Source: a virus (Duplodnaviria > Heunggongvirae > Uroviricota > Caudoviricetes). Taken from it: a stretch of 30,710 nucleotides of DNA. The stretch is taken from positions 1-30,710 of the IMG/VR virus record IMGVR_UViG_2529293040_000025. The stretch is one strand, 5' to 3'. Below are positions 6,663 to 23,753 of the stretch, one piece after another. The stretch's first letter is position 1. Every line of letters begins with the position of its first letter. The translations under genes were made by a program, and so were the position numbers. The notes under the pieces are model-generated. The model did no database searches. It saw only the letters and a list, made by a program, of their open reading frames with translations, and had not been told where the DNA came from.

Positions 6663-7316
6663 TCAAAAATCCATTATTACTTGTTTGACAAGACCAACTA
6701 TTCTGCAGTTCTCACCGCATTCAATAGTTTTATAGTTAGGATTTAGTGGGACGAGATACCTGTTCGGCCAGTCCTCAACAAATTTTTTGAGTGTCGCTTC
6801 TTGCCCACCATTGATATGGGCAACAACGATTTTTCCGTTAATACACTCTGTATCAATAATATCTGGCTCTACGATAACGATAGAACCTTCTGGTATCGAT
6901 GGTGAGCCGAGGGGATTGGTCATTGAATCACCACGGACCCGTAGTGCAAATGCCATTTCTGATACAAGGGCGGTAGTATAAACCCACTCTTCAGCATCTT
7001 CTTTCCTGACACCAGGCTCCGTCATTGTCCATGAACCCGCCTGAACCCACGAGATTAGGGGGACTTTTTTAACTGCGAATATTTCAGGTTTTAGATTTAT
7101 CTTTGGTTCAGGCGAGCCTTTTCCGCTAACAAGCCACAGAGGATCGCATTTAAGTGCGTTGGCTAGGGCTTGAAGGTTGGCTCCATTTGGTTGGTAGTCG
7201 TCCTTTTCCCATCCAGTAACCGTGACACGGTTCACACCAGTCAAATCAGCCAGTGCTTGTTGTGTCAGGTTCAGTTCTTTTCGCCTTTGGCGAATACGAT
7301 CACTCATGTTCATCAT
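6663..7316 (-). CDS. CI-like prophage repressor (HTH_XRE N-terminus, S24 LexA-like peptidase C-terminus)
   Basis: N-terminal HTH (LTQQALADLTGVNRVTVTGWE) and C-terminal autocleavage domain with the GDSM serine motif and a downstream lysine. Divergent from the Cro-like gene across an operator region. Start could be 7316, 7313 or 7307. Confidence 0.85.
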   Translation of the reverse strand: MMNMSDRIRQRRKELNLTQQALADLTGVNRVTVTGWEKDDYQPNGANLQALANALKCDPLWLVSGKGSPEPKINLKPEIFAVKKVPLISWVQAGSWTMTEPGVRKEDAEEWVYTTALVSEMAFALRVRGDSMTNPLGSPSIPEGSIVIVEPDIIDTECINGKIVVAHINGGQEATLKKFVEDWPNRYLVPLNPNYKTIECGENCRIVGLVKQVIMDF

Positions 7317-8546: not shown

Positions 8547-8823
8547 TTCTGCCATTCCGGGACGTTACACTGTTCAGGCACCTTATAAAGCGGGTGCCGG
8601 GATTGGCGTCCTGAAATTGATTACTGAGCATAACCGCGCTCATGCGGTTTTTTCGTGTCATGAGCATTGCTACGCCCAAATTATGGTGGGGCGTACAGGG
8701 CCGACTTCGGTCGGGCCGGGTTCGGTAGTCTCCGGTAACGCCAACCCTGTACGTCTCACCACCTCTGTGATTGGCGTCCCATGTGGTGAGTTTTCTGAAA
8801 AACTGACTACCGGGGCTGTCACC

Positions 8824-17179: not shown

Positions 17180-17256
17180 CCGCCATTAGCTCATCGGGAT
17201 AGAGCGTCAGCCTTCGAAGCTGGCTGTGCGGGGTTCAAGTCCCCGATGGCGGTCCA
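17180..17256 (+). tRNA. argN: tRNA-Arg (anticodon TCG)
   Basis: 77 nt; acceptor stem CCGCCAT/ATGGCGG; T-loop TTCAAGT; anticodon loop CTTCGAA; ends CCA. Confidence 0.8.
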
Positions 17257-17269
17257 TTATCAGCATCAT

Positions 17270-17346
17270 GCGTTGTTAGCTCAGTCGGACAGAGCAATTG
17301 CCTTCTAAGCAATCGGTCACTGGTTCGAATCCAGTACAACGCGCCA
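17270..17346 (+). tRNA. argO: tRNA-Arg (anticodon TCT)
   Basis: 77 nt; acceptor stem GCGTTGT/ACAACGC; anticodon loop CTTCTAA; T-loop TTCGAAT; ends CCA. Confidence 0.8.
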
Positions 17347-18708: not shown

Positions 18709-19022
18709 TTTTTTTATTTGCTGTTTATTAAAAATACTACTGCATGGTGAATCCCCCTGTGCGGAGGGGCGATCAGCAACCAGGTATATGGGATAATCGC
18801 GGATTCAGGTGCTGATACTGAATTCACCGGGAGGCACCCGGCACCATGCTTTGCCGCAAAAGTGTTGTTTCTGTTTTTCTCAAACTATCATCGTTATCCC
18901 TTTATTTCCGGCTGCGCATGGCGTGGCCTTTTTTTTACGACCAGCCACTGGCAGATGGCCATCCTGTAATTTGATTCCGGTTCCGGCTTTTTAACTCTGT
19001 TCCTGTACACGGGAGAAATTCG

Positions 19023-20876
19023 ATGTCGATTAAACATTATGATGTTGTCAGGGCGGCGTCGCCGTCAGACCTTGCGGAAAAGCTGACACACAAACTGAAA
19101 GAGGGCTGGCAGCCGTTTGGTAGTCCGGTGGCCATAACCCCTTATACCCTGATGCAGGCGATTACAGCAGAAGGTGATGTGGTGGTCAGTGGTGCAACTG
19201 AGCCGGATTGGTACTACGTCATCGTACTGGCCGGGCAGTCCAATGCCATGGCTTACGGTGAAGGGCTTCCGCTGCCGGATTCATACGATGCTCCGGATCC
19301 GCGCATTAAACAGCTGGCGCGCCGCAGTACAGTTACGCCGGGTGGGGCTGCATGCAGATATAACGATATTATTCCGGCCGACCACTGCCTGCATGATGTG
19401 CAGGATATGAGTACGCTGAATCATCCGAAGGCAGACCTGAGCAAAGGGCAGTACGGCTGTGTCGGCCAGGGCTTACATATTGCCAAAAAACTGCTCCCGT
19501 ATATCCCGAATAACGCGGGGATCCTGCTGGTACCATGCTGTCGTGGTGGTTCGGCATTCACCCAGGGCGCGGAGGGGACATTCAGTGCGGACACGGGGGC
19601 CAGCCAGGATTCGGCACGCTGGGGTGTGGGTAAACCGTTATATCAGGACCTGATTGCGCGCACTAAAGCTGCATTACAGAAGAACCCGAAAAATGTGTTG
19701 CTGGCGGTGTGCTGGATGCAGGGAGAGTTTGACATGAGCGCCGCCACCCACGCACAGCAACCTGCGCTGTTTACAGCCATGCTGACACAGTTTCGTGCTG
19801 ACCTCTCCGTGTTTAACGCGCAGTGCCATGGTGGCAGTGCTGCAGATGTGCCGTGGATTTGTGGTGACACGACGTATTACTGGAAAAATACATACGCTAC
19901 CCAGTACGACACCGTGTACGGCGGGTATAAAAACAGGGAGAGTGAGGGCGTTTATTTTGTGCCCTTCATGACAGACGGTAACGGCGTCAATACCGCCACT
20001 AACGCACCGGCAGAAGATCCGGATATTCCGGCATCAGGATATTACGGTGCGGCATCGAGAACGAATGGAAACCAGGTATCATCAAACCGCCCGACACATT
20101 TCAGTTCATGGGCGCGCAGGAGCATTATTCCGGATCGTATGGCAACCGCTATTCTGAACGCAGCCGGGCGCACCTCAGCTTTCATCAGTGGTAAGGCACC
20201 GGAAATCAAACCCTCGCCCGGCGGCAACACGCCATCGGGGCCGTCTGAAGATGCATCCGTACGCACAATCTCCCTGTTGCCGACAGCCGGAGAGGCTGCT
20301 GCGCAGGGCTGGACCATTAAGGACGGCGGAATTCAGTTGTCGGGTGGTGTATTTAAGATCGCCAAGCAGAGCAATAAAACCTGGTCCCTGATGCATCCGG
20401 TGGATGACGCAGTCTCCCTGCTGACACGGGGTGGCAGACTGAGCTGTAAGTTTCGACTGTCAGGCGCACTGACCAACAACCAGTTCGGCCTGGGAATTTA
20501 TCTGTATACCGATGTAGCGTTACCTGACGTCGTGGCGATGACCGGGACTGGTAACCCGTTCCTGATGTCGTTCTTCACCCAGACCACAGACGGCAAACTG
20601 AATCTGATGCATCACAAGAAAGCAGGAAACACAAAGTTGGGCGAGTTCGGGAATTACAGTAATGACTGGCAGACGCTGGAACTGGTGTTCACCGCCGGCA
20701 GTGCCACGGTTACTCCGAAACTGAATGGAGTGGCTGGCCCGGCATTCCAGGTCATAAAAGACAGTCTGACACTGGGGCTGAATGCGCTGACGCTGACGGA
20801 TATTACCAAAAATGCAGCGTATGGCGTTGAGATAGAAAGTCTGGTGCTGGAGATAAATGCACCGGCATCATCATAA
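19023..20876 (+). CDS. nanS: prophage sialate O-acetylesterase NanS-p-like (DUF1737 N-terminus plus SASA esterase domain)
   Basis: GQSNAMAYGEG catalytic-serine motif; 617 aa; sits between the tRNA/moron region and the lysis genes, where NanS-p paralogues lie in Stx phages. Confidence 0.75.
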   Translation: MSIKHYDVVRAASPSDLAEKLTHKLKEGWQPFGSPVAITPYTLMQAITAEGDVVVSGATEPDWYYVIVLAGQSNAMAYGEGLPLPDSYDAPDPRIKQLARRSTVTPGGAACRYNDIIPADHCLHDVQDMSTLNHPKADLSKGQYGCVGQGLHIAKKLLPYIPNNAGILLVPCCRGGSAFTQGAEGTFSADTGASQDSARWGVGKPLYQDLIARTKAALQKNPKNVLLAVCWMQGEFDMSAATHAQQPALFTAMLTQFRADLSVFNAQCHGGSAADVPWICGDTTYYWKNTYATQYDTVYGGYKNRESEGVYFVPFMTDGNGVNTATNAPAEDPDIPASGYYGAASRTNGNQVSSNRPTHFSSWARRSIIPDRMATAILNAAGRTSAFISGKAPEIKPSPGGNTPSGPSEDASVRTISLLPTAGEAAAQGWTIKDGGIQLSGGVFKIAKQSNKTWSLMHPVDDAVSLLTRGGRLSCKFRLSGALTNNQFGLGIYLYTDVALPDVVAMTGTGNPFLMSFFTQTTDGKLNLMHHKKAGNTKLGEFGNYSNDWQTLELVFTAGSATVTPKLNGVAGPAFQVIKDSLTLGLNALTLTDITKNAAYGVEIESLVLEINAPASS

Positions 20877-20961
20877 AAAGTGAGCCAGCCAAATGGAAGG
20901 TATCGTTAAACTCACCGGTAGTGTCAGTGGGTCGTCTGAGATGCCTGCATGAGTTATCAGA

Positions 20962-20991
20962 GCCATCAGTACTTAACTGGTGGCTTTTTTT
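20962..20991 (+). terminator. rho-independent terminator between nanS-p and the lysis cassette
   Basis: 8-bp stem GCCATCAG/CTGGTGGC with a 7-nt loop, followed by TTTTTTT. Confidence 0.45.
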
Positions 20992-21026
20992 ATTGCTGTC
21001 AGCTTCCGGATAACGGGAGACGGGGT

Positions 21027-21242
21027 ATGTACCAGATGGAAAAAATCACAACAGGTGTGTCATACACCACGTCAGCGGTGGGAACGGGCTACTGGTTCCT
21101 GCAGTTGCTGGACAGGGTTTCCCCGTCTCAGTGGGCGGCAATAGGCGTGCTGGGGAGTCTGCTGTTTGGGCTGCTGACATATCTGACTAACCTGTATTTC
21201 AAAATCAGAGAGGACCGTCGTAAGGCGGCGCGGGGGGAGTAA
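21027..21242 (+). CDS. S: phage-21-type pinholin/antiholin S (dual start, 71/68 aa)
   Basis: Near-identical to S21 as recalled ([23 protein letters not shown]...[20 protein letters not shown]); Met1 and Met4 dual-start motif; GGGAG RBS. ORF-track start 20949 is an extension running through the terminator. Confidence 0.8.
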
Positions 21243-21246
21243 AGCG

Positions 21247-21591
21247 ATGAAGAAAAAATACGAACTGGGTGTTAAAGGGATAAATAATTACCCGGATAAG
21301 ATTACTGTTACTGTGGCACTGGAAATTGGTGGGTATCCGTCACTGTTGTTGCCAGATGTGGCGATTAGTCTTGACCGTACTGAAGGTGCCACGCTGGAGT
21401 TTTACGAAGCTGAGGCGAAAAAGCAGGCGAAGCAGTTTTTCATGGATGTTGCTGCCGGGTTATGTGAAGGGGATGGTCCGTTGCCGGAAAAGCGGCCCAT
21501 CATTTTAGAGGCGCAGGATGTGTTGATAACCTACAGAGGAAAACTACCGGGAATAATTACTGGTTCTCTGAAGACTCCACCGCTGGCCTGA
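21247..21591 (+). CDS. hypothetical protein (114 aa) inserted between holin and endolysin
   Basis: Strong GGGGGAG RBS; no family recognised; acidic and soluble-looking. Confidence 0.5.
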   Translation: MKKKYELGVKGINNYPDKITVTVALEIGGYPSLLLPDVAISLDRTEGATLEFYEAEAKKQAKQFFMDVAAGLCEGDGPLPEKRPIILEAQDVLITYRGKLPGIITGSLKTPPLA

Positions 21592-21641
21592 AGACTTAAT
21601 ATATCCAGGGATTTGAAATCGATAAACCCTGATAAATATCC

Positions 21642-22175
21642 ATGAACGCAAAAATCAGATACGGCCTGTCGGCTGCCGTTCTGGCGCTGATTGGTGCAGG
21701 GGCGTCTGCGCCTGAAATCCTCGACCAGTTTCTTGACGAAAAAGAAGGTAACCACACCACGGCATACCGTGATGGTGCGGGTATCTGGACCATCTGCCGC
21801 GGTGCCATCCTGGTGGATGGTAAACCTGTCGTCCCGGGCATGAAGTTGTCGAAGGAAAAATGCGACCAGGTTAACGCCATTGAACGTGATAAGGCGCTGG
21901 CATGGGTGGAGAAAAACATCAGAGTGCCACTGACCGAACCCCAGAAAGCGGGGATTGCGTCATTCTGTCCGTACAACATTGGTCCTGGTAAGTGTTTCCC
22001 GTCGACGTTTTACAGACGAATTAATGCAGGTGATCGCAGGGGAGCGTGTGAGGCGATTCGCTGGTGGATTAAGGACGGTGGCAGAGACTGCCGTATTCGT
22101 TCAAACAACTGTTACGGTCAGGTATCCCGTCGTGACCAGGAGAGCGCGCTGGCGTGCTGGGGTATCGACAGATAA
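21642..22175 (+). CDS. R: SAR endolysin (glycoside hydrolase family 24 lysozyme with signal-anchor-release domain)
   Basis: N-terminal weakly hydrophobic Gly/Ala-rich segment (GLSAAVLALIGAGASA) followed by a T4-lysozyme-like catalytic region (E...D...T triad region); pairs with the pinholin. Confidence 0.85.
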   Translation: MNAKIRYGLSAAVLALIGAGASAPEILDQFLDEKEGNHTTAYRDGAGIWTICRGAILVDGKPVVPGMKLSKEKCDQVNAIERDKALAWVEKNIRVPLTEPQKAGIASFCPYNIGPGKCFPSTFYRRINAGDRRGACEAIRWWIKDGGRDCRIRSNNCYGQVSRRDQESALACWGIDR

Positions 22176-22267
22176 GCAGAATATTTTGCTGAAAAATAAG
22201 GCATGGCCACGCGGGCGGATAACACGAAATCCTGCGAACTGGCGAAACGTAAGTGAATAAAAGTAAA

Positions 22268-22306
22268 AACCCCGTTTGTTGGCACCAAGCGGGGTTTTGT
22301 GTTTCT
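22268..22306 (+). terminator. hairpin terminator-like element after the endolysin gene
   Basis: AAAACCCCG-loop-CGGGGTTTT stem followed by a GT-rich tail. Confidence 0.4.
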
Positions 22307-22331
22307 GACCTTGAGTAAGGCAAGGGAGAAC

Positions 22332-22514
22332 ATGGCGAAGTATAAACGAATTCTGTTGAGGTTGACTATGAAAAATGGCCTTGAACTGAAAGCGCCTGTA
22401 ACTGATGACATCAGCAGAGCACTGGCTTTTGCCATTAAGTGGGTGGCGGTCGGTGTTGCTGTGTCCCCGATGCTGTATGGGCTGGCAAAACTGGTCATTG
22501 CGTTGAAATCGTGA
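22332..22514 (+). CDS. small hypothetical membrane protein (60 aa)
   Basis: AAGGGAG RBS; C-terminal hydrophobic helix ([22 protein letters not shown]). ORF-track ORF 22299-22514 starts earlier. Confidence 0.4.
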
Positions 22515-22528
22515 AGGGAGGATTAAGC

Positions 22529-22660
22529 ATGTCAGACAAACTCATAACGCTGGCGAAGATCCTCTGTGTAATTGTCGGCATTTCATTTTCACTAATGCTG
22601 GTTGCTCTTTTTCTTTCCATGGCCTGGATGATGTTGTCTTCGTCGGGGTTGCTGGGGTGA
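22529..22660 (+). CDS. small hydrophobic peptide (43 aa)
   Basis: Strong GAAGGGAGG RBS; single long hydrophobic segment; its stop overlaps the GTG start of Rz (GTGA). Confidence 0.35.
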
Positions 22661-23130
22661 ACATAAACCGAATGCTTTCCGCGTTTATCGTTATTCTGCT
22701 GGTGGCCTGTGGTGCGCTGTGGATGGCAACAGACCATTACCGTGATAACGCGATTACCTACAAAGCGCAGCGCGATAACAAAGCCAGTGAACTGAAGCTG
22801 GCGAACGCAACCATTACTGATATGCAGGTGCGCCAGCGCGATGTTGCTGCGCTCGATGCAAAATACTCGAGGGAATTATCCGATGCGAGAGCTGAAAATG
22901 AAACTCTGCGCGCTGATGTTGCCGCTGGTCGTAAGCGCCTGCGGATCAACGCCACCTGTCCAGGCTCCGTGCGTGAAGCCCCCACCACCTCCGGCGTGGA
23001 TAATGCAACCGGCCCCCAACTGGCAGACACCGTTACACGGGATTATTTCACCCTCAGAGAGCGGCTGATGACGATGCACAAGCAACTGGAAGGGGCACAG
23101 GACTATATCCGCACTCAGTGCCTGAAATAA
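22657..23130 (+). CDS. Rz: Rz i-spanin
   Basis: Strong similarity to lambda Rz ([14 protein letters not shown]...ADAENETLR...[10 protein letters not shown]) as recalled; N-terminal transmembrane anchor. Confidence 0.8.
22883..23068 (+). CDS. Rz1: Rz1 o-spanin (lipoprotein, embedded in the +1 frame of Rz)
   Basis: Lipobox (LVVSAC) and proline-rich [14 protein letters not shown] motif as in lambda Rz1. Start could be 22883 or 22898. Confidence 0.7.
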
Positions 23131-23479
23131 GTTTTGTTGATGCGCCGTATCGTCGCTGTATTCCCTCATTAACAGAGACCGCAGCCCGACAGGGAGACTC
23201 CTCTGCGCGAGTGTGCGGGGATAATCAAAAACGATACACACCGGGGTTTACCGCGTTAACGGAGCGCGGCGTTGTCCCCTCATAGTCGCCTGTCCGGTGC
23301 GATGGTGGAAGAAGCCGGATGTTTATCACTATTAATTGATGACACAGAAATGGATTCATTGAATTTCAGCACGTTTTTGTATTCGTGTTATTGAACATCT
23401 GTTTATTTTACTTTTAACATATTGATAATAAAAAGAGCTGTAAATCTTTAGATGAGTCGATTTTGTCCGGGGAAGTTCA

Positions 23480-23620
23480 AATGGATTTTATGCTGACGGT
23501 TTCTGGTGTGGTTATCCTGTCCATTGCTTATACTGCAGATAAATATGGCTGCCATTTGTTATCACGTATTGGCGCTTATTGTTCGTTGATGCTGATTTTC
23601 TCGTCGCTTTTTTTTGAGTA
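23480..23620 (+). CDS. possible small membrane peptide (46 aa)
   Basis: GGGGAAG RBS 6 nt before the ATG; hydrophobic translation MDFMLTVSGVVILSIAYTADKYGCHLLSRIGAYCSLMLIFSSLFFE; lies in an AT-rich intergenic island. Speculative. Confidence 0.2.
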
Positions 23621-23753
23621 AGTTATATTAATTATAACAAATAATTTTCTGTGTTATTTTTTCAGGCTATCCCGTCAGAGGGGAAGCCTGTACTGCCGGG
23701 GAGCGAATGGAAAACTGATGTGTCCGGTAACTGCGTGTTCTGTGAACACCATG

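Follow-up and report, generated by a model that had tools for sequence, protein, structure and literature searches.

Two conserved small membrane-protein genes between the endolysin and Rz genes of a lambdoid Escherichia coli prophage

What is encoded between the endolysin gene R and the spanin gene Rz of a lambdoid prophage, when the two genes overlap in its relatives? In this study, we performed a computational analysis of a viral stretch of 30,710 nt (IMG/VR record IMGVR_UViG_2529293040_000025, positions 1 to 30,710; hereafter the window), which is a lambdoid prophage of Escherichia coli most closely matched (99.6-99.8% identity) by clinical strains, among them the O104:H4 outbreak lineage. 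The gap from R to Rz measures 481 bases here and has no counterpart in DLP12 and Qin, two K-12 relatives whose R and Rz genes overlap by 4 nt; the comparison supports the view that the segment is an insertion relative to cassettes with abutting R and Rz. An earlier note, made from the letters of the window, had described in this gap a hairpin and two strongly initiated small open reading frames (ORFs) of 60 and 43 aa. Judged from their sequences and their conservation, ORF1 and ORF2 are real conserved genes for single-helix membrane proteins. The segment that holds them (22266-22660) would form a promoterless cassette within the Q-dependent late operon, in the order terminator hairpin, leader, ORF1 with two starts, and ORF2 abutting Rz, and both products are predicted to be single-pass peptides of the cytoplasmic membrane.

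Conservation and distribution of ORF1 and ORF2

ORF1 (22332..22514, plus strand) encodes 60 aa and has GGGAG 3 nt before its ATG. ORF2 (22529..22660, plus strand) encodes 43 aa and is preceded by a strong Shine-Dalgarno (SD) sequence, AGGGAGGA, at 22515-22522, which ends 6 nt before the ATG (7 nt when only the GGAGG core is counted). The hairpin and the two ORFs described earlier are all in the sequence, and the good SD sequences agree with the strong initiation claimed for both; the two start codons lie one base earlier than had been implied (the ATG of ORF1 at 22332, not 22333). In O104:H4, the products are the RefSeq hypothetical proteins WP_001151822.1 and WP_001280932.1, respectively. As had also been proposed, each has one hydrophobic helix: the only segment above the Kyte-Doolittle membrane threshold comprises residues 38-56 in ORF1 (mean 1.88) and residues 11-29, the single predicted transmembrane helix, in ORF2 (mean 2.89). 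In ORF1, an amphipathic, basic helix at the N terminus (residues 2-16) is followed by the conserved segment MKNGLE.xAPVT and a transmembrane helix at the C terminus, and its AlphaFold2 model (predicted local distance difference test score, pLDDT, 77) places helices at residues 2-16 and 22-59 with a break at NGLELKAP. At most 4 residues follow the helix in ORF1, which ends in ...ALKS, and at most 14 in ORF2, which ends in ...SSSGLLG. The idea that the two proteins are paralogs was rejected, as profile-profile comparison gave it a probability of 3%.

The ratio of nonsynonymous to synonymous substitution rates (dN/dS) was well below 1 only in the annotated frames. For ORF1, it was 0.09-0.12 in frame against 0.8-8.8 in the other two frames (codons 13-60, compared with Salmonella copies), and among 48 unique sequences the variation in codons 19-60 fell on third codon positions. 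For ORF2, it was 0.25 in frame (subtype a versus subtype b) against 1.1-1.4 in the other frames. Conservation extends from E. coli to Salmonella and environmental contigs, and start codons and SD sequences are kept. The earlier note had made its proposal depend on conservation of the reading frames in related prophages, and on this point it clearly holds. Chance reading frames in an intergenic spacer, which might be suspected from the exclusively hypothetical annotation and from the frameshifts of ORF2 in some prophages, are effectively excluded by this pattern as far as sequence evidence goes. A 126-aa ORF on the minus strand (22118-22498) was also rejected; it matched no family, and the substitutions are distributed as expected for the plus-strand frames.

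Of 5426 complete E. coli genomes, 990 (about one in five, the O104:H4 outbreak lineage among them) contain at least 80% of the segment, and its annotation is always that of hypothetical proteins. Relatives of ORF1 occur in E. coli, E. marmotae and Salmonella, with further relatives in environmental phage contigs, and an exhaustive profile search gathered a small family of 21 clusters at 50% identity. The relatives of ORF2 all come from E. coli and always follow ORF1; a minority of prophages carry a frameshifted ORF2, and rearranged ORF2-ORF1 fusions exist. ORF1 matches phrog_1115, phrog_4493 and phrog_3246, and ORF2 matches phrog_4906, all families without assigned function, and no significant match to either ORF was found in Pfam, NCBIfam, PADLOC or PDB (PDB sequences E >= 0.1). 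Scans of species-representative genomes returned nothing confirmable for the protein pattern and three unrelated generic terminators only for the leader motif. Plating phages of the PhiR5/PhiR12 series carry both ORFs, so the cassette is compatible with viable phage.

ORF1 and ORF2 are already known as database hypothetical proteins and as PHROG families, and a literature search by accession, by PHROG id and for small lysis-cassette proteins turned up no paper that describes them. What appears to be new is the anatomy: a promoterless, terminator-led cassette with an SD-occluding leader, a conserved internal start and exchangeable cargo between endolysin and Rz that is shared with Shiga toxin (Stx) phages. 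The second start of ORF1, the leader, the absent promoter and the cassette nature, with the same hairpin and leader before an ORF of Stx phages, all go beyond the earlier note.

Hairpin, leader and start sites

Hairpin H (22266..22298) has a G+C-rich 13-bp stem and a 7-nt loop and is terminator-like on both strands, with an A-run before and a T-run after the stem and a T-rich tail that reaches about 22308. Its folding energy is -18.9 kcal/mol (z = -3.9), and none of 200 shuffled sequences folds equally well. It was scored as an intrinsic-terminator-like site by a terminator scan, which by itself was not significant (5 sites found against 2.6 expected in shuffles); rather than on that scan alone, we hold the hairpin to be beyond chance because it is conserved with compensatory changes, counted as stem pairs, in 22 lineages. 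In 21 of these it folds at -18 to -24 kcal/mol with differing inner stems, and in the 22nd it is degenerate (-11.6 kcal/mol); the A-run and the T-run are present in every lineage. Wobble pairs were rejected as a test of the strand on which the hairpin is selected, as some lineages favor plus and others minus.

A G+C-rich hairpin lies upstream of the first start codon in every ORF1 relative examined, usually at 25-45 nt and in some lineages at about 90 nt. Its presence is independent of the upstream gene, which in Salmonella may be a lysozyme, a GH19 endolysin or a P22-type antirepressor and in other loci a 93-aa gene behind an M15 peptidase endolysin or a tail-fiber assembly gene, in the last case with another terminator following the ORF; in G+C-rich environmental phage contigs, the hairpin follows tail gene K, a capsid-region gene or tail-fiber genes. 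Since it is kept before ORF1 relatives whatever precedes, with co-varying stems, the hairpin belongs to the ORF1 gene and not to R, which bears out the earlier view that it is the ORFs' own element.

The leader between the hairpin and ORF1 (22299..22331, plus strand) reads GUUUCUGACCUUG...CAAGGGAGAAC-AUG, with an anti-SD at 22309-22313 opposite the SD region at 22321-22331. In minimum-energy folds, CCUUG pairs with CAAGG and GUUUCU pairs with AGAAC, and the SD is paired in 17 of the 22 lineages; by this structural prediction, the ribosome-binding site of the first ORF1 start would be occluded. The sequence GTTTCTGACCTTGAG is identical in environmental homologs despite a protein identity of only about 40%.

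Within ORF1, we infer that Met13 is used as a second start, giving a short form of 48 aa (22368..22514, plus strand) with its own SD, GAGG, at 22358-22361. Met13 is invariant in all 48 unique ORF1 sequences and in distant relatives, and the annotation of many relatives begins there. The GAGG lies 5-9 nt ahead of Met13 in 24 of 27 distinct leaders; the codon of Arg10 is always AGG or AGA and never CGN, and the preceding codon ends in G in the same proportion of leaders (24/27). In two lineages (L087 and L089), GAGG persists in another codon register, where other amino acids are encoded, and this retention across registers argues for nucleotide-level selection for an internal ribosome-binding site. 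The 12-residue N-terminal extension (xYKRIL[LM]RLT) shows synonymous changes between lineages, which suggests translation of the long form as well. Ahead of the helix, the long form carries a net charge of +5, with 4 Lys/Arg in the extension, and the short form begins with an acidic segment.

At the other end of the cassette, the stop codon of ORF2 (TGA, 22658-22660) overlaps the GTG at 22657 that opens the Rz frame, and the GTGA overlap reported earlier is indeed there. Rz may start at GTG 22657 or at ATG 22672; the NCBI pipeline picks ATG 22672, and with the GTG start the protein keeps the Arg found ahead of the membrane helix in other Rz proteins.

A promoter scan of 20800-23500 found no plus-strand site resembling a promoter, none was seen by eye between the hairpin and ORF1 or in the 3' region of R, and the usual spacing between hairpin and start is too short for a promoter. 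Stand-alone copies of the cassette (L087 and L270) have a second terminator just upstream of the hairpin, and a terminator downstream of the ORF is found only in such copies. With no promoter and one or more terminators ahead, the genes would be reached only by transcription that ignores terminators. In lambda, Q-modified polymerase reads through terminators, and in this prophage such polymerase, starting at the late promoter, would transcribe the genes.

The same hairpin and leader also precede a different single-helix ORF of 45 aa (phrog_6632), which is found in H-19B (L003 2659-2796) and many Stx phages, in Salmonella SPN3UB (L277 1801-1938) and in Pseudomonas phage YMC11/02/R656 (L276 1998-2144); this argues for a constant 5' end with exchangeable small membrane ORFs. 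The 45-aa ORF is unannotated in most Stx phage records, and its relatives reach Salmonella, Pseudomonas and Actinobacillus phages. In one E. coli prophage (L093 2366-2850), four small membrane ORFs stand in a row between R and Rz, among them the H-19B type, a frameshifted ORF2 fused to the C terminus of ORF1, and a 28-aa relative of ORF1; the row shows recombination within the R-Rz slot.

Ahead of the hairpin, the 90 nt that follow the R stop (22176..22265, plus strand) form a conserved non-coding stretch that is about 86% identical in H-19B and many Stx phages. It is optional, being present in Stx-phage and some Salmonella cassettes and absent from type B E. coli cassettes. Its core, GCGGGCGGATAACAC[G/A]AAATC, is recognizable in two Salmonella loci (L085 and L086) and in SPN3UB, even behind a different (GH19) endolysin. 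A small hairpin within the stretch shows AACACGAA in its loop, the stretch has GATAACAC in common with the 5' end of the anti-sRNA (anti-small RNA) AgvB, and it could be an RNA derived from a 3' untranslated region. In SPN3UB, both the conserved stretch and the hairpin are preceded by a further hydrophobic ORF of 36 aa (L277 1537-1645), which overlaps the endolysin gene at its end.

Possible roles of the cassette

We consider it plausible, if still short of probable, that ORF1 and ORF2 are late-expressed accessory membrane peptides, doubly gated by terminator and leader, which modulate the membrane step of lysis. Only the terminator-resistant, Q-modified RNA polymerase would reach them; the lysogen would not express them, and they would appear alongside S, R and Rz as the lytic cycle ends. 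The leader hairpin would both throttle the long form of ORF1 and set the ratio of long to short form, much like the sdi structure of lambda S107/S105. The peptides may affect the timing or the sharpness of lysis, and they would be dispensable and not core lysis proteins. This reading is drawn from the near-constant place of the cassette in enteric lysis cassettes, its coupling to Rz, the dual start, and the dispensability that follows from its absence in DLP12 and Qin. Among 164 non-identical loci, on which all architecture counts are based, the order S21 holin - (DUF1327) - lysozyme - ORF1 - ORF2 - Rz was found in about 90, the order holin_8 - (M15 peptidase) - ORF1 - ORF2 - 60-aa lipoprotein (phrog_7528) in about 45, and ORF1 - 28-aa ORF - Rz in about 17, the 28-aa ORF that occupies the same slot elsewhere being the ORF1 relative mentioned above. 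For enteric prophages, at least 155 of the 164 loci have the cassette placed with the endolysin on one side and Rz or the 60-aa lipoprotein on the other.

Several points weigh against a modulator of lysis. The relatives of ORF1 adjoin four unrelated holin types, and environmental contigs place the cassette inside tail or head gene clusters, which makes a partner-specific antiholin less likely and allows a role independent of lysis. Of the roles suggested by the earlier note (antiholin, lysis inhibitor or exclusion factor), the holin-specific antiholin therefore loses ground, while the membrane-protein genes themselves are real. The same indifference to holin type, together with the sites outside lysis cassettes, would also be in keeping with a general activity at the membrane, or with a role as cargo or in conflict. 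In Pfam and NCBIfam, neither ORF has homology to any holin or antiholin family, and both C termini are without the charged tail typical of holins. The energies of the leader folds are modest (individual z = -1 to -2.6), and, as the SD cannot vary, covariation cannot prove the leader pairing. Finally, codons 3-18 of ORF1 are near-invariant at all three positions, with variation at codon 2 and at the middle base of codon 6 (Arg/Leu/Pro), and this constraint points to an extra nucleotide-level function that a lysis modulator does not need.

A type I toxin-antitoxin-like design would account for this constraint, and we regard it as unlikely but as the chief rival. On the precedent of hok/sok and the sar RNA of P22, a minus-strand promoter in codons 3-5 of ORF1 would produce an antisense RNA of about 75 nt, covering leader, SD and first start codon and terminating at H, which would work as a terminator in both directions; the RNA would check the translation of a toxic membrane peptide, or act in trans, until late mRNA outnumbers it. 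The candidate promoter has the -10-like hexamer TATACT (22339..22344, minus strand), with TAGTCA at -35 and an 18-nt spacer. A hexamer matching at 5/6 or 6/6 positions (TATACT, TACAAT or TATAAT) occurs at this site in each of the 10 lineages of the ORF1 family that were tested; among random windows of 34 nt, 4.8% match TATAAT at 5/6 or better. The lineages are related by descent, so that the count is not a probability. In addition, the unrelated H-19B-type ORF has an extended -10, TGCTAAAAT, on the minus strand of its codons 3-6, from E. coli to Pseudomonas. In the ORF1 family, however, the -35 is poor or absent and the TG extension is absent, and translation by itself favors AT-rich N-terminal codons, with the conserved Tyr codon giving TA. 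The A-run and T-run that flank the stem in every lineage are consistent with such an RNA, as is the conservation of codons 3-18 and of the leader beyond the need of the protein, with the variable codon 2 and the second position of codon 6 lying outside the hexamers; moreover, the candidate RNA folds into two hairpins (z = -2.9). On the other hand, no promoter for a toxin mRNA was found in the region scanned, the hairpin would stop sense transcription too, the wobble pairs of the stem favor different strands in different lineages, and a search of 20800-23600 gave no Rfam family match (best match rimP, E = 0.29). The RNAs AgvB/AsxR, Pas, STnc100 and StxS were considered and rejected, as their described sites lie upstream of the holin gene or near stx and not between R and Rz, and STnc100 is found elsewhere in the window.

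It is likewise unlikely, in our judgment, that the peptides are the products of cargo (moron) genes, which would block the DNA entry of rival phages or another membrane step, or bind a host membrane protein, with the lysis cassette as a tolerated site. In favor of this, the cassette occupies many intergenic sites of late operons and is patchily present among close relatives, and the same hairpin and leader stand before ORF1, the H-19B type, the 28-aa ORF1 relative, tandem paralogs and rearranged fusions, a turnover typical of conflict genes. Furthermore, the soluble N-terminal segment of ORF1 (MKNGLE.DAPVT) is more conserved than its helix, suggesting a specific binding partner. Exclusion genes, however, are normally expressed from the prophage, and here no promoter was found and one or two terminators lie ahead. 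PADLOC gave no matches, and a place in the endolysin-spanin gap in at least 155 of 164 enteric loci is more specific than a random tolerated site.

A broader and more doubtful reading combines parts of the foregoing. The hairpin and the SD-occluding leader would be a shared 5' "socket" with swapped peptide genes and its own antisense RNA, the two forms of ORF1 would possibly take opposite orientations, and the whole would be an undescribed system, gated by RNA and antitermination, for lysis timing or phage-phage conflict. The range of the socket would then cover late operons of temperate phages of E. coli, Salmonella and Pseudomonas and of environmental phages.

It is quite improbable that the peptides are accessory factors of the spanin, translationally coupled to Rz, which assist or restrain the Rz-Rz1 complex. 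The stop of ORF2 overlaps the Rz start or lies within 10 nt of it in all Rz-linked loci, and in Salmonella ORF1 stands directly before Rz; yet the ORF1-ORF2 pair also precedes the unrelated 60-aa lipoprotein in about 45 loci, relatives are found far from any spanin, and Rz works without ORF1 and ORF2 in lambda, DLP12-type and Qin-type cassettes. Neither product has the Cys lipobox or the periplasmic coiled coil of a spanin, and the helix is followed by few residues.

Burst size and toxin release depend on the timing of lysis, and ORF1 and ORF2 are missing from current lysis models and are often unannotated; in Stx phages, the sister cassette behind the same hairpin lies in the operon that releases Shiga toxin. 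If the two peptides modulate lysis, then terminator gating, the sdi-like leader and the dual start would add a regulatory layer to it. If they are conflict genes, a cassette-exchange site would lie inside lysis operons. On either reading, the cassette is a defined, small and testable target.

Genomic setting and comparison with known systems

The upstream neighbor of the cassette is R (21642-22175, plus strand), a phage lysozyme (PF00959, E = 3e-24) whose N terminus is hydrophobic and signal-anchor-like, and the downstream neighbor is Rz (22657-23130, plus strand), the inner-membrane spanin subunit (PF03245, E = 7e-47), with Rz1 embedded in it (22883-23068, frame read from the ORF list). An S21-type holin (21027-21242) and a DUF1327/YdfR gene (21247-21591) precede R. 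Just upstream of the holin gene, a second terminator-like hairpin (20959-20987; 12 pairs and a T-run) falls inside the longest possible S reading frame (20949-21242). Downstream of Rz, a further small hydrophobic ORF (23463-23621) has 52 aa as listed and is annotated at the matching locus of O104:H4 as a hypothetical protein of 46 aa (WP_000347013.1); a Pfam search with it gave no match. In about 45 related loci (L101 2840-3022, for example), the place of Rz is taken by the 60-aa lipoprotein of phrog_7528, a family without assigned function, which has the lipobox LVGC and is a candidate outer-membrane lysis component.

Elsewhere in the window are a cI-type repressor gene (6663-7316), the Q antiterminator gene upstream of the lysis cassette (15800-16594), three transfer RNA genes downstream of Q (within 17097-17343; Rfam gathering-score matches), a SASA esterase gene (19023-20876) and the terminase gene Nu1 (24176). 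Further Rfam matches at gathering score are STnc100 sRNA, IsrK RNA and C4 antisense RNA (positions 18716-18885, 8578-8654 and 8679-8766), the last of which adjoins a Rha/Ash-type gene. Between the KilA-N gene and the DUF968 and Q genes, an IS4/Tn5-like transposase ORF (13534-14907; DDE_Tnp_1, Tnp_DNA_bind) is probably an insertion sequence in the early-right region.

How does the cassette compare with systems already described? First, it has in common with hok/sok and P22 sar a hydrophobic peptide shorter than 60 aa, occlusion of the SD, a leader reading frame that is in frame or overlaps and, as a candidate here, a short antisense RNA that covers the ribosome-binding site and stops at a hairpin; the size and hydrophobicity of ORF1 and ORF2 fit those of type I toxins. 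The difference is that no toxin-mRNA promoter was found here (no plus-strand site in 20800-23500), the antisense promoter is a candidate only, and the hairpin lies upstream of the gene and would terminate sense transcription too. There is also no homology to Hok, Ldr, Ibs, TisB, ShoB or their RNAs.

Second, classical morons, which the lysogen expresses, are preceded by a promoter of their own and followed by a terminator, and HK97 gene 15 encodes a membrane protein for superinfection exclusion. Like HK97 gene 15 and bor/lom, ORF1 and ORF2 are extra small membrane-protein genes between conserved late genes, with a patchy distribution; R and Rz, which they separate, overlap in DLP12 and Qin, and the sites of the cassette vary. 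Unlike these morons, the cassette has a terminator in front, and neither a promoter upstream nor a terminator downstream was seen at this locus.

Third, P2 LysA, the Mu gp25 "releasin" and P1 LydC/LydD are accessory membrane proteins of lysis cassettes (PMC9239132, PMC9025707). They resemble ORF1 and ORF2 as non-core small membrane proteins encoded beside endolysin and spanin genes, and LysA in particular, which has an effect on timing, is encoded between the endolysin gene and the equivalent of Rz. By contrast, they belong to distinct PHROGs, with no Pfam match and no homology found, are larger or have several helices, and none has been described with a terminator-hairpin leader.

Finally, the dual-start holins, lambda S105/S107 and S21 68/71, offer a parallel in layout to ORF1, which is likewise a gene for a small membrane protein with at least one transmembrane helix in a lysis cassette, with two in-frame starts, a longer product that carries extra N-terminal positive charge, and a stem-loop (sdi in the holin genes) involving the SD of the first start. 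There are also clear differences: ORF1 shares no sequence homology with these holins and has no significant match to a described holin family in Pfam or NCBIfam, has one helix where holins have two or three, carries an extension of 12 residues (+4 to +5) against 2-3 residues (+1) in the holins, and is without their hydrophilic, highly charged C-terminal tail. Besides, a true S21-type holin is already encoded upstream in the same cassette, and relatives of ORF1 occur outside lysis cassettes. The sequence comparison suggests that the dual start and leader of ORF1 resemble the holin/antiholin and sdi layout without making ORF1 a member of that class.

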